A stretch of 64,000 nt of DNA from Escherichia coli (GTDB taxonomy: Bacteria; Pseudomonadota; Gammaproteobacteria; Enterobacterales; Enterobacteriaceae), in the NCBI RefSeq assembly GCF_003790525.1, contig NZ_CP033635.1, one strand, 5' to 3'. Under the pieces are notes generated by a model. That model was not told the DNA's origin. It made no database searches and was given only the letters and a program-made list of their open reading frames with translations. Shown one piece after another: positions 3,158 through 22,208 of this stretch; position 1 is the stretch's first letter; every line of letters begins with the position of its first letter. The position numbers and the translations under genes were made by a program.

Positions 3158-3451
3158 TTAGCGTGGCAGCGAGATTTTACGTTCTTTAGTTGGGCGATAA
3201 AGCACCAGCGTTTTACCGATGACCTGTACATTACAGGCGCCGGTTTCGCGCACGATAGCTTCCACGATCAAGGTTTTAGTTTCGCGATCTTCGGTGGCGA
3301 TTTTCACCTTGATGAGTTCATGGTGCTCTAACGCTTGTTCAATCTCGGCCAGCACCCCTTCGGTCAAACCATTACTGCCAAGCAGAACAACTGGCTTGAG
3401 CGGATGTGCCAGACCTTTCAGGTGCTGTTTTTGTTTAGTACTCAGATTCAT
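3158..3451 (-). CDS. yhbY: RNA-binding protein YhbY (CRM/CRS1-YhbY domain, ribosome assembly)
   Basis: 97-aa ORF MNLSTKQKQHLKGLAHPLKPVVLLGSNGLTEGVLAEIEQALEHHELIKVKIATEDRETK...; divergent from rlmE as in E. coli. Confidence 0.9.
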   Translation of the reverse strand: MNLSTKQKQHLKGLAHPLKPVVLLGSNGLTEGVLAEIEQALEHHELIKVKIATEDRETKTLIVEAIVRETGACNVQVIGKTLVLYRPTKERKISLPR

Positions 3452-3576
3452 CGTATTTTTTGCTTACGTTGGGATTGAAAACGGGTCATTCTACCGCCAT
3501 CTCCCATATATCACCAAATAGGCGCGTAAAAATTTACGCAATTGGTTACGATGAGTTATCCCCATGGGAAAGTTAA

Positions 3577-4206
3577 ATGACAGGTAAGAAGCGTTCTGCC
3601 AGCTCCAGCCGCTGGCTTCAGGAACACTTTAGCGATAAATATGTTCAACAGGCACAGAAAAAGGGGTTACGTTCCCGTGCCTGGTTTAAACTTGATGAAA
3701 TACAGCAAAGTGACAAACTCTTTAAACCGGGAATGACGGTTGTCGACCTTGGTGCTGCGCCAGGTGGTTGGTCACAATATGTGGTCACCCAAATTGGCGG
3801 CAAAGGCCGTATCATCGCTTGCGATCTTTTACCTATGGATCCTATCGTTGGTGTGGACTTTCTTCAGGGCGATTTTCGTGATGAACTGGTGATGAAAGCA
3901 CTGCTGGAGCGCGTAGGCGACAGCAAAGTCCAGGTTGTCATGTCCGATATGGCACCAAACATGAGCGGAACACCGGCGGTGGATATCCCCCGTGCCATGT
4001 ATCTGGTGGAACTGGCGCTAGAAATGTGTCGTGATGTATTAGCGCCAGGTGGCAGTTTTGTAGTGAAGGTGTTCCAGGGCGAAGGTTTCGATGAGTATCT
4101 AAGGGAAATTCGCTCCCTGTTTACGAAGGTCAAAGTTCGTAAGCCGGACTCTTCTCGTGCACGTTCACGGGAAGTGTATATTGTAGCGACCGGGCGTAAA
4201 CCCTAA
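3577..4206 (+). CDS. rlmE: 23S rRNA U2552 2'-O-ribose methyltransferase RlmE (FtsJ/RrmJ)
   Basis: 209-aa ORF with SAM-binding motif [15 protein letters not shown]; directly upstream of ftsH. Confidence 0.95.
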
Positions 4207-4305
4207 CCGGGAGATTTCAGACGAAAGTTTGAAAGATGCTGGATATAGAGTATCCTGACGCTGTTTTTAACACAGTTGTAATAAGAGGTTAATCCCTTGA
4301 GTGAC

Positions 4306-6240
4306 ATGGCGAAAAACCTAATACTCTGGCTGGTCATTGCCGTTGTGCTGATGTCAGTATTCCAGAGCTTTGGGCCCAGCGAGTCTAATGGCCGTAAGGT
4401 GGATTACTCTACCTTCCTACAAGAGGTCAATAACGACCAGGTTCGTGAAGCGCGTATCAACGGACGTGAAATCAACGTTACCAAGAAAGATAGTAACCGT
4501 TATACCACTTACATTCCGGTTCAGGATCCGAAATTACTGGATAACCTGTTGACCAAGAACGTCAAGGTTGTCGGTGAACCGCCTGAAGAACCAAGCCTGC
4601 TGGCTTCTATCTTCATCTCCTGGTTCCCGATGCTGTTGCTGATTGGTGTCTGGATCTTCTTCATGCGTCAAATGCAGGGCGGCGGTGGCAAAGGTGCCAT
4701 GTCGTTTGGTAAGAGCAAAGCGCGCATGCTGACGGAAGATCAGATCAAAACGACCTTTGCTGACGTTGCGGGCTGCGACGAAGCAAAAGAAGAAGTTGCT
4801 GAACTGGTTGAGTATCTGCGCGAGCCGAGCCGCTTCCAGAAACTCGGCGGTAAGATCCCGAAAGGCGTCCTGATGGTCGGTCCTCCGGGTACCGGTAAAA
4901 CGCTGCTGGCGAAAGCGATTGCAGGCGAAGCGAAAGTTCCGTTCTTTACTATCTCCGGTTCTGACTTCGTAGAAATGTTCGTCGGTGTGGGTGCATCCCG
5001 TGTTCGTGACATGTTCGAACAGGCGAAGAAAGCGGCACCGTGCATCATCTTTATCGATGAAATCGACGCCGTAGGCCGCCAGCGTGGCGCAGGTCTGGGC
5101 GGTGGTCACGATGAACGTGAACAGACTTTGAACCAGATGCTGGTTGAGATGGATGGCTTCGAAGGTAACGAAGGTATCATCGTTATCGCCGCGACTAACC
5201 GTCCGGACGTTCTTGACCCGGCCCTGCTGCGTCCTGGCCGTTTCGACCGTCAGGTTGTGGTTGGCTTGCCAGATGTTCGTGGTCGTGAGCAGATCCTGAA
5301 AGTTCACATGCGTCGCGTACCATTGGCACCCGATATCGACGCGGCAATCATTGCCCGTGGTACTCCTGGTTTCTCCGGTGCTGACCTGGCGAACCTGGTG
5401 AACGAAGCGGCACTGTTCGCTGCTCGTGGCAACAAACGCGTTGTGTCGATGGTTGAGTTCGAGAAAGCGAAAGACAAAATCATGATGGGTGCGGAACGTC
5501 GCTCCATGGTGATGACGGAAGCGCAGAAAGAATCGACGGCTTACCACGAAGCGGGTCACGCGATTATCGGTCGCCTGGTGCCGGAACACGATCCGGTGCA
5601 CAAAGTAACGATTATCCCGCGCGGTCGTGCGCTGGGTGTGACCTTCTTCTTGCCTGAGGGCGACGCAATCAGCGCCAGCCGTCAGAAACTGGAAAGCCAG
5701 ATTTCTACGCTGTACGGTGGTCGTCTGGCAGAAGAGATCATCTACGGGCCGGAACATGTTTCTACCGGTGCGTCCAACGATATTAAAGTTGCGACCAACC
5801 TGGCACGTAACATGGTGACTCAGTGGGGTTTCTCTGAGAAACTCGGTCCGCTGCTGTATGCGGAAGAAGAAGGTGAAGTGTTCCTCGGCCGTAGCGTAGC
5901 GAAAGCGAAACATATGTCCGATGAAACTGCACGTATCATCGACCAGGAAGTGAAAGCACTGATTGAGCGTAACTATAATCGTGCGCGTCAGCTTCTGACC
6001 GACAATATGGATATTCTGCATGCGATGAAAGATGCTCTCATGAAATATGAGACTATCGACGCACCGCAGATTGATGACCTGATGGCACGTCGCGATGTAC
6101 GTCCGCCAGCGGGCTGGGAAGAACCAGTCGCTTCTAACAATTCTGGCGACAATGGTAGTCCAAAGGCTCCACGTCCGGTTGATGAACCGCGTACGCCGAA
6201 CCCGGGTAACACCATGTCAGAGCAGTTAGGCGACAAGTAA
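4306..6240 (+). CDS. ftsH: ATP-dependent zinc metalloprotease FtsH (HflB)
   Basis: ORF contains [19 protein letters not shown] membrane anchor, Walker [14 protein letters not shown] zinc motif; 644 aa from ATG 4306. The ORF also extends in frame to TTG 4297, which has the better Shine-Dalgarno spacing (AAGAGG 4283-4288). Confidence 0.92.
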
Positions 6241-6271
6241 GTTCCCGCATCAGATGACTGTATTTGTACCG

Positions 6272-6302
6272 AAAACCCCGGGGCGTGCTCCGGGGTTTTT
6301 TC
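6272..6302 (+). terminator. Rho-independent terminator after ftsH
   Basis: aaaaCCCCGGggcgtgctCCGGGGtttttt. Confidence 0.6.
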
Positions 6303-6329
6303 TTATCAATTCATACCAGGGATAACACC

Positions 6330-7178
6330 ATGAAACTCTTTGCCCAGGGCACTTCACTGGACCTTAGCCATCCTCACGTAATGGGGATCCTCAACGTCAC
6401 GCCTGATTCCTTTTCGGATGGCGGCACGCATAACTCGCTGATAGATGCCGTGAAACATGCGAATCTGATGATCAACGCTGGCGCGACGATCATTGACGTT
6501 GGTGGCGAGTCCACGCGCCCAGGAGCGGCGGAAGTTAGCGTTGAAGAAGAGTTGCAACGTGTTATTCCTGTGGTTGAGGCAATTGCTCAACGCTTCGAAG
6601 TCTGGATCTCGGTAGATACATCCAAACCAGAAGTCATCCGTGAGTCAGCGAAAGTTGGCGCTCACATTATTAACGATATCCGCTCCCTTTCCGAACCTGG
6701 CGCTCTGGAGGCGGCTGCAGAAACCGGTTTACCGGTTTGTCTGATGCATATGCAGGGAAATCCAAAAACCATGCAGGAAGCGCCGAAGTATGACGATGTC
6801 TTTGCAGAAGTGAATCGCTACTTTATTGAGCAAATAGCACGTTGCGAGCAGGCGGGTATCGCAAAAGAGAAATTGTTGCTCGACCCCGGATTCGGTTTCG
6901 GTAAAAATCTCTCCCATAACTATTCATTACTGGCGCGCCTGGCTGAATTTCACCATTTCAACCTGCCGCTGTTGGTGGGTATGTCACGAAAATCGATGAT
7001 TGGGCAACTGCTGAACGTGGGGCCGTCCGAGCGCCTGAGCGGTAGTCTGGCCTGTGCGGTTATTGCCGCAATGCAAGGCGCGCACATCATTCGTGTTCAT
7101 GACGTCAAAGAAACCGTAGAAGCGATGCGGGTGGTGGAAGCCACTCTGTCTGCAAAGGAAAACAAACGCTATGAGTAA
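6330..7178 (+). CDS. folP: Dihydropteroate synthase
   Basis: ORF from ATG 6330: [32 protein letters not shown]..., 282 aa; ORF-track start at 6264 is an upstream in-frame extension. Confidence 0.93.
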
Positions 7179-13234: not shown

Positions 13235-13687
13235 TTGTCCACATTAGAGCAAAAATTAACAGAGATGATTACTGCGCCAGTTGAGGCCCTGGGTTTTGAA
13301 CTGGTTGGCATCGAATTTATTCGCGGTCGCACATCCACACTGCGCATCTATATTGATAGTGAAGATGGCATCAATGTTGATGATTGTGCTGATGTGAGCC
13401 ACCAGGTAAGTGCTGTGCTGGATGTTGAAGATCCCATCACCGTTGCTTATAACCTGGAAGTCTCCTCACCGGGTCTCGATCGCCCACTGTTCACGGCTGA
13501 ACACTACGCCCGTTTCGTCGGAGAAGAGGTGACTCTGGTTCTCCGCATGGCGGTACAAAACCGTCGTAAATGGCAGGGCGTTATCAAAGCGGTAGACGGT
13601 GAAATGATCACAGTTACCGTCGAAGGTAAAGATGAAGTGTTCGCGCTGAGTAATATCCAGAAGGCGAACCTGGTTCCCCACTTTTAA
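13235..13687 (+). CDS. rimP: Ribosome maturation factor RimP
   Basis: ORF (L/M)[31 protein letters not shown]...; no in-frame ATG, so a TTG (13235 or 13223) or GTG (13229) start is inferred; 150 aa from 13235. Confidence 0.8.
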
Positions 13688-20072: not shown

Positions 20073-22208
20073 TTGCTTAATCCGATCGTTCGTAAATTCC
20101 AGTACGGCCAACACACCGTGACTCTGGAAACCGGCATGATGGCTCGTCAGGCTACTGCCGCTGTTATGGTTAGCATGGATGACACCGCGGTATTCGTTAC
20201 CGTTGTTGGCCAGAAAAAAGCCAAACCAGGTCAGGACTTCTTCCCACTGACCGTTAACTATCAGGAGCGTACCTACGCTGCTGGTCGTATCCCGGGTAGC
20301 TTCTTCCGTCGTGAAGGCCGCCCAAGCGAAGGCGAAACCCTGATCGCGCGTCTGATTGACCGCCCGATTCGCCCGCTGTTCCCGGAAGGCTTCGTCAACG
20401 AAGTTCAGGTTATCGCCACCGTGGTTTCTGTTAACCCGCAAGTTAACCCGGATATCGTCGCGATGATTGGTGCTTCCGCAGCACTGTCTCTGTCTGGTAT
20501 TCCGTTCAATGGTCCGATTGGTGCTGCCCGCGTAGGTTACATCAATGACCAGTACGTACTGAACCCGACTCAGGACGAGCTGAAAGAGAGCAAACTGGAT
20601 CTGGTTGTTGCGGGTACTGAAGCCGCTGTACTGATGGTTGAATCTGAAGCTGAACTGCTGAGCGAAGACCAGATGTTGGGCGCAGTAGTGTTTGGTCATG
20701 AACAACAGCAGGTTGTCATTCAGAACATCAATGAACTGGTGAAAGAAGCCGGTAAACCGCGTTGGGACTGGCAGCCGGAGCCGGTAAACGAAGCGCTGAA
20801 CGCGCGCGTTGCTGCACTGGCTGAAGCTCGTCTGAGCGATGCTTACCGCATCACCGACAAACAAGAGCGTTATGCGCAGGTTGATGTCATCAAATCTGAA
20901 ACCATCGCGACGCTGCTTGCTGAAGATGAAACCCTGGACGAAAACGAACTGGGTGAAATTCTGCACGCTATCGAGAAAAACGTTGTTCGTAGCCGCGTAC
21001 TGGCAGGCGAACCGCGTATCGACGGTCGTGAAAAAGATATGATTCGTGGTCTGGATGTGCGTACTGGCGTGCTGCCGCGTACTCACGGTTCTGCGCTGTT
21101 CACCCGTGGTGAAACTCAGGCGCTGGTTACCGCAACGCTGGGTACTGCACGTGACGCGCAGGTTCTTGATGAACTGATGGGCGAACGTACTGACACCTTC
21201 CTGTTCCACTACAACTTCCCTCCGTACTCCGTAGGCGAAACCGGCATGGTCGGTTCTCCGAAGCGTCGTGAAATTGGTCACGGTCGTCTGGCGAAGCGCG
21301 GCGTGCTGGCAGTCATGCCGGATATGGACAAATTCCCGTACACCGTACGTGTGGTGTCTGAAATCACCGAATCCAACGGTTCTTCTTCTATGGCTTCCGT
21401 GTGCGGCGCGTCTCTGGCGCTGATGGACGCAGGTGTGCCAATCAAAGCTGCCGTTGCGGGTATCGCAATGGGTCTGGTGAAAGAAGGCGACAACTACGTT
21501 GTACTGTCTGACATTTTGGGCGACGAAGATCACCTGGGCGATATGGACTTCAAAGTTGCGGGTTCCCGCGACGGTATCTCTGCATTGCAGATGGATATCA
21601 AAATTGAAGGTATCACCAAAGAGATCATGCAGGTTGCACTGAACCAAGCTAAAGGTGCGCGTCTGCATATCCTGGGCGTAATGGAACAGGCGATCAACGC
21701 GCCGCGCGGCGATATCTCTGAGTTCGCTCCGCGTATCCATACCATCAAGATCAACCCGGACAAGATCAAAGACGTTATCGGTAAAGGCGGTTCTGTTATC
21801 CGTGCTCTGACCGAAGAAACTGGCACCACCATCGAAATCGAAGATGACGGTACTGTGAAAATCGCAGCGACCGACGGCGAGAAAGCGAAACATGCTATTC
21901 GTCGTATCGAAGAGATCACAGCAGAAATCGAAGTGGGCCGCGTCTACAATGGTAAAGTGACCCGTATCGTTGACTTTGGCGCATTTGTTGCCATCGGCGG
22001 CGGTAAAGAAGGTCTGGTACACATCTCTCAGATCGCTGACAAACGCGTTGAGAAAGTGACCGATTACCTGCAGATGGGTCAGGAAGTACCGGTGAAAGTT
22101 CTGGAAGTTGATCGCCAGGGCCGTATCCGTCTGAGCATTAAAGAAGCGACTGAGCAGTCTCAACCTGCTGCAGCACCGGAAGCTCCGGCTGCTGAACAGG
22201 GCGAGTAA
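20073..22208 (+). CDS. pnp: Polynucleotide phosphorylase (PNPase)
   Basis: ORF (M)[30 protein letters not shown]..., C-terminal KH and S1 domains; 711 aa from TTG start at 20073 (SD AAGGA 8 nt upstream); ORF-track start 19986 is an upstream in-frame ATG. Confidence 0.9.

Follow-up and report, generated by a model that had tools for sequence, protein, structure and literature searches.

The closest described case is ftsH of Escherichia coli K-12 itself, for which a UUG start codon was reported as early as 1998 (Wang et al. 1998, J Bacteriol 180:1929; Akiyama 1999, Biochemistry 38:11693) and found again in a genome-wide survey by tetracycline ribosome profiling, or TetRP (Nakahigashi et al. 2016, DNA Res 23:193, PMC4909307). 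Table S2 of that survey lists the gene, as ECK3167, with a new start at a shift of -9, a TTG, flagged both "new site" and "lacZ-fusion"; its K-12 position is given as 3,324,966 on the minus strand (U00096.2). In the three samples profiled, the TetRP signal reached 138.4, 156.5 and 143.5 at the UUG, against 1.15, 1.77 and 5.16 at the annotated AUG, and the UUG:AUG ratios drawn from the values of this paper are 129, 113 and 47 (mean 96). When both codons were present in lacZ fusions, loss of the UUG cut beta-galactosidase more than loss of the AUG did; the authors also remark that the two earlier reports were not adopted in the GenBank records of 2006 and 2014. Start-site ribosome profiling, which the preliminary description of this locus had called for, is thus already published, and its signal lies at the UUG. 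The annotated ATG lost out to a nearby in-frame UUG, by profiling and lacZ fusions alike, for potA, rfaQ and yedI as well (PMC4909307); ftsH differs from these three in being essential and structurally much studied, in having a UUG start that had already been reported, and in the conservation of this start across the 80 species described below. No N-terminal peptide for ftsH appears in the TetRP table (PMC4909307) or in the N-terminomics supplements that we searched; the gene is absent from the text of the Meydan 2019 preprint and, as far as text and supplements were searched, from TRAINSPOTTER 2026 and a study of Salmonella riboproteogenomics, and literature searches returned no direct N-terminal data on FtsH. 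The lack of such a peptide in these datasets is probably due to the protein itself, as the tryptic peptide SDMAK would be too short and the next one would be the segment of the first transmembrane helix (TM1).

We analyzed the ftsH start in a window of 64,000 nucleotides from another E. coli strain (RefSeq assembly GCF_003790525.1, contig NZ_CP033635.1), in which the gene order is greA, yhbY, rlmE, ftsH, folP. The gene, the codon (at -9) and the product are the same as in the published K-12 case, from which we found no biological difference: the strain is another one and the FtsH protein accession is not the K-12-type one, and the region upstream of ftsH does not differ from that of a K-12-type genome, O16:H48 (L002). 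Over 50 kb, the window shows 3 mismatches with E. coli SC516, and 5,424 of the 5,425 matching genomes have an ftsH region with at least 99% identity. The features to which we refer are the following.

3577..4206, + strand: rlmE (ftsJ/rrmJ), the upstream neighbor, from the RefSeq annotation
4207..4296, + strand: rlmE-ftsH intergenic leader, from alignment and promoter scan
4283..4289, + strand: Shine-Dalgarno (SD) sequence of ftsH, AAGAGGT, with the pairing core GAGGU at 4285-4289
4297..6240, + strand: ftsH (hflB) coding sequence, 647 codons plus stop, from the open reading frame listing and translation
4297..4299, + strand: functional start codon TTG, fMet1 of the 647-aa protein, from SD spacing, conservation, TetRP and lacZ fusion
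4300..4305, + strand: codons Ser2-Asp3 (AGT GAC), omitted by the current database annotation, from coding-type conservation
4306..4308, + strand: ATG, here Met4, the start in RefSeq, UniProt and PDB, from the PGAP coding sequence start

The product started at the TTG has 647 aa and begins MSDMAKNL. In this numbering, the Walker A motif GPPGTGKT of AAA+ proteins lies at residue 195 and the zinc-binding HEXXH motif expected of FtsH/HflB is present as HEAGH at 417-421. Over residues 4-145, the 142 residues used as a query, the protein matches E. coli FtsH of PDB entries 7wi4_A and 7vhp_A without a difference (E = 1e-90), and ftsH is the RefSeq gene name in 100%-identical DNA, which identifies the product as FtsH/HflB, the AAA+ zinc metalloprotease of the membrane. 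Immediately downstream, folP is another site where the longest open reading frame and the annotated start disagree, the former running from a TTG at 6264 (6264-7178, 304 aa) and the RefSeq gene, of 282 aa, from the ATG at 6330.

The local sequence of the ftsH start reads ...aatAAGAGGttaatcccTTGagtgacATGgcgaaaaac.... Read directly from the window, AAGAGG occupies 4283-4288, the TTG 4297-4299 and the ATG 4306-4308, so that the spacers are 8 nt to the TTG (4289-4296) and 17 nt to the ATG (4289-4305), exactly as first described; the two codons share one frame, which no intervening stop interrupts. By chance, a codon ATG, GTG or TTG is expected in frame within three codons upstream in about 13% of cases, and the presence of the TTG therefore carries little weight alone; the element that goes beyond chance is the placement of the SD, which discriminates between the two codons. 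The strongest duplex of the region forms between GAGGU (4285-4289) and the 16S rRNA 3′ tail ACCUCCUUA, at -6.5 kcal/mol, and the only pairing near the ATG involves GAG at 4299-4301, which stands 4 nt ahead of the AUG and yields -2.2 kcal/mol. We measured spacing with a single duplex-based metric, on which the values depend, applied in the same way to all 48 RefSeq-annotated genes of the region, and took as a comparison set the 37 others whose SD pairs at -4 kcal/mol or more strongly. Their spacings range from 2 to 11 with a mode of 6; on the same metric ftsH scores 6 from the TTG, at the mode, and 15 from the ATG, outside the entire range, which bears out the earlier claim that SD spacing favors the TTG. 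In terms of canonical SD-led initiation, for which the SD stands about 5-10 nt from the start, GAGGU is correctly placed for the TTG, which it precedes by 7-8 nt, and lies beyond functional spacing for the ATG (17 nt, counted from AAGAGG). Two further genes of the window, pnp (20073-22208) and rimP (13235-13687), have TTG starts with a normally spaced SD; they resemble ftsH in this respect and differ from it in that RefSeq already annotates their TTG. With ftsH counted, 3 of the 48 genes in the region are UUG-initiated.

To see how far this arrangement extends, we scanned one genome per species and retained 80 gamma- and betaproteobacterial loci with an aligning FtsH N-terminus (L003-L082). 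The codon at -9, counted from the E. coli-type Met codon (locus position 1501), is TTG in 64 species, GTG in 8 and ATG in 5, and two more species have a GTG at -12 owing to a one-codon insertion, such whole-codon changes being the only changes of length seen. An upstream start codon is thus kept in 79 of the 80 species (TTG 64, GTG 10, ATG 5), and in 74 of 77 loci a GAGG-type SD precedes it at a distance of 3-8 nt (median 6). Codon 2 is AGT, AGC, AAC or AAT (Ser/Asn), with a pyrimidine in third position in 79 of 80 species, and codon 3 is GAC, GAT, AAC or AAT (Asp/Asn), with a third-position pyrimidine in 76 of 80; the two vary as two-fold degenerate coding positions do, and not as a spacer. 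The codon aligned with the E. coli ATG is ATG in 60 species and no start codon at all in the other 20 (CTG, CTC, CTA, CTT, TTA, ATC, ATA, ATT, GTT and others), where the upstream codon must therefore be the start. In the sole species without the extension, a Succinatimonas sp. (L038:1140-1170), ftsH begins at the ATG position, immediately preceded by an SD of its own, AAAAGGGGA, indicating that the three residues can be lost. As judged from this alignment, the ancestral N-terminus is M-(S/N)-(D/N)-(M/L/I)-x-K-N, retained by E. coli. These data, together with the TetRP and lacZ results, bear out the option raised in the preliminary description that FtsH carries three extra residues, MSD.

The case for the UUG thus rests on the geometry of the sequence, its conservation across species and published in vivo initiation data, and we consider it very probable that FtsH is initiated at UUG 4297 by SD-directed pairing, giving a protein of 647 aa in which AUG 4306 encodes an internal Met4. 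In the mechanism that we propose, pairing of GAGGU with the 16S rRNA 3′ end would position the 30S subunit on the ftsH mRNA and place its P site over the UUG, 7-8 nt downstream, where the initiator tRNA would begin FtsH as fMet-Ser-Asp-Met-Ala-Lys-Asn; AUG 4306 would serve as a start rarely, if ever. A serine at position 2 allows the removal of Met1, following the established rule for methionine aminopeptidase. Since residue 2 is Ser, the enzyme would be expected to remove Met1 from FtsH, leaving a mature N-terminus Ser-Asp-Met-Ala-Lys.

The UUG start stands against RefSeq/PGAP and every PDB entry, all of which use the ATG, and two alternatives give this codon a role in initiation. If the annotation were right, translation would begin at AUG 4306, either with a 17-nt SD spacing or independently of the SD, and the TTG would belong to an untranslated leader. 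Apart from RefSeq/PGAP, the UniProt-derived PDB sequences and the original description of a 644-aa protein, the weak GAG pairing just ahead of the AUG speaks for such a start. We regard it as highly improbable: the in vivo TetRP and lacZ results (PMC4909307) contradict it, the three upstream codons show coding-type conservation and the ATG position is occupied by a non-start codon in 20 species, and the spacing that it implies is an outlier (15 vs. 2-11). The same observations speak against the second option of the preliminary description, initiation at the ATG by non-canonical spacing. Alternatively, initiation could be dual, mostly at UUG 4297 with a functionally meaningful minority at AUG 4306, so that proteoforms of 647 and 644 aa would share the hexamer. 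The two codons are in frame and 9 nt apart, AUG is intrinsically the stronger, and the ATG is kept at the Met4 position in 60 of 80 species. Moreover, the TetRP signal at the AUG is low yet nonzero (1.1-5.2), which is compatible with a second proteoform at the percent level, and the lacZ effect of UUG loss is described as "greater", not as the sole one (PMC4909307). Yet the profiling favors the UUG by 47-129 to 1, far from two comparable signals, the SD lies 17 nt from the AUG, beyond local range, and the absence of a start codon in 20 of the 80 species argues that a second proteoform is no conserved requirement. The preference for Met, Leu or Ile at position 4 is explained equally well by a hydrophobic residue opening TM1, and an M4A substitution destabilizes FtsH (PMC13039401). 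Dual initiation hence appears very unlikely, if somewhat less so than an AUG start.

A different possibility is that TTGAGTGAC is conserved as a non-coding RNA signal, such as a structured or thermosensing leader or a standby site, and not as codons. Two observations point that way: the 45 nt ahead of it likewise hardly vary among Enterobacterales, and the minimum free energy fold of 4207-4345 pairs the SD with AACCU at 4315-4319 and covers both start codons (z = -2.6). We considered a hairpin that joins the SD to the AUG, as well as an RNA thermometer, and rejected both, as the z = -2.6 of the 139-nt fold is not matched by the 84-nt folds of 14 species, which are shuffle-like and unconserved. 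Centered on the start, these 84-nt folds do not exceed shuffled sequences in stability, either for E. coli (z = +0.75) or for 12 of the 13 relatives tested, their z values run from -2.1 to +1.7 over the 14 species, and the predicted structures differ between species, so that conserved and stable sequestration of the SD or start was not found. A scan of 3400-4600 against Rfam at E <= 1 returned no family match. Finally, variation within the 9 nt is limited to alternative start codons, pyrimidine wobble and whole-codon insertions or deletions, which is the signature of coding sequence. A non-coding signal is, in our estimate, scarcely credible as the explanation, and we retain initiation at the UUG, with codons 2 and 3 translated.

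UUG is an intrinsically weaker start codon than AUG, and its persistence in ftsH can be set against the start codons of rlmE, its upstream same-strand neighbor in 75 of the 80 loci. By a rough assignment, rlmE starts with ATG in 54 of 69 cases (about 78%), GTG in 8 and TTG in 7; for ftsH the corresponding figures are TTG 64, GTG 10 and ATG 5 of 79, and the Fisher p-value for this comparison is very small, although descriptive only, the species being related. The predominance of TTG in ftsH (64/79) over a neighbor that mostly uses ATG (54/69) hints at selection for a weak start codon. It is conceivable, and we offer this tentatively, that the rare UUG of ftsH is held by selection, in that a weak or initiation factor-sensitive codon would cap or tune the level of a protease harmful in excess, with the AUG of Met4 possibly acting as a fail-safe. 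The breadth of UUG conservation is the sole element of this work for which we know of no earlier report, and we consider it mildly new.

The databases still carry the shorter protein. In both the matching strain and the K-12-type genome, RefSeq/PGAP has ftsH begin at the ATG and encode 644 aa, and the full-length E. coli FtsH sequences in the PDB (7wi4, 7vhp, 7wi3, 9cz2) all have the 644-aa MAKNL form, whereas both forms coexist in public protein collections, where 875 contigs carry the exact 647-aa sequence (e.g., ACB18432.1 of E. coli SMS-3-5) and 969 the shorter one. The 644-aa MAKNL sequence of RefSeq, UniProt and PDB is an annotation convention that favors ATG. The first His of HEAGH is residue 417 of the 647-aa protein and 414 of the 644-aa one, and the Met before SEQLGDK is residue 640 in the longer numbering. 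Akiyama (1999) is reported to have placed the C-terminal self-cleavage of FtsH at Met-640/Ser-641, which would agree with a protein of 647 aa. In a 2026 Nature Communications paper on FtsH, the residue numbers follow Wang et al., with the +3 numbering (PMC13039401): the study mutates S2, M4, A5 and K6, finds that residues 2-6 affect stability, the destabilizing M4A among the changes made, uses H417Y as the catalytic mutant, and treats S2 as a residue through the suppressor S2K. Since H417Y fits the first His of HEAGH only in a protein of 647 aa, the standard name of this mutant presupposes the TTG start.

In consequence, RefSeq/PGAP, UniProt-derived and PDB sequences of FtsH are short of three N-terminal residues, the cytoplasmic tail ahead of TM1 is MSDMAKN and not MAKN, and the literature carries two numberings side by side, with H417 and H414 designating one zinc ligand. 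A corrected annotation of ftsH would take away a source of confusion, and the case shows the systematic bias of annotation pipelines toward ATG. The mismatch is an annotation lag and no discovery, as the UUG start has been in the literature since 1998, and the biological gain is small, with this start reported since then and confirmed genome-wide in 2016. On a separate note, the 90%-identity clusters of FtsH in the protein collection also contain RlmE, FolP and GlmM, encoded by genomic neighbors of ftsH, which looks like a clustering artifact, perhaps resulting from fused or mis-joined gene calls.

The leader between rlmE and ftsH shows features of its own. The 45 nt before the TTG (4252-4296, CTGACGCTGTTTTTAACACAGTTGTAATAAGAGGTTAATCCC) show almost no variation over a range that extends from E. 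coli to Yersinia, Photorhabdus and the reduced Pantoea symbionts, a degree of conservation close to that of the coding sequence, and have no significant predicted structure; an internal promoter, or else a site of processing or binding, could account for this conservation. The promoter scan gave a single sigma-70-like match in the region, at 4229-4256, with the promoter-like hexamers TTGAAA-16-TATCCT. In genera outside the clade of E. coli, Citrobacter and Enterobacter, rlmE has its TAG stop within the conserved block CTGTAGTACCCT, only about 40 nt from the ftsH start; we had considered this block as a promoter element and dismissed it, because the alignment places the rlmE stop codon inside it in most species. 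Within the clade of E. coli, Citrobacter and Enterobacter, some 50 inserted nt separate the rlmE stop from the conserved leader (window 4207-4256), and this insertion contains the sigma-70-like match as well as a predicted hairpin, UUUCAGAC-GAAA-GUUUGAAA.
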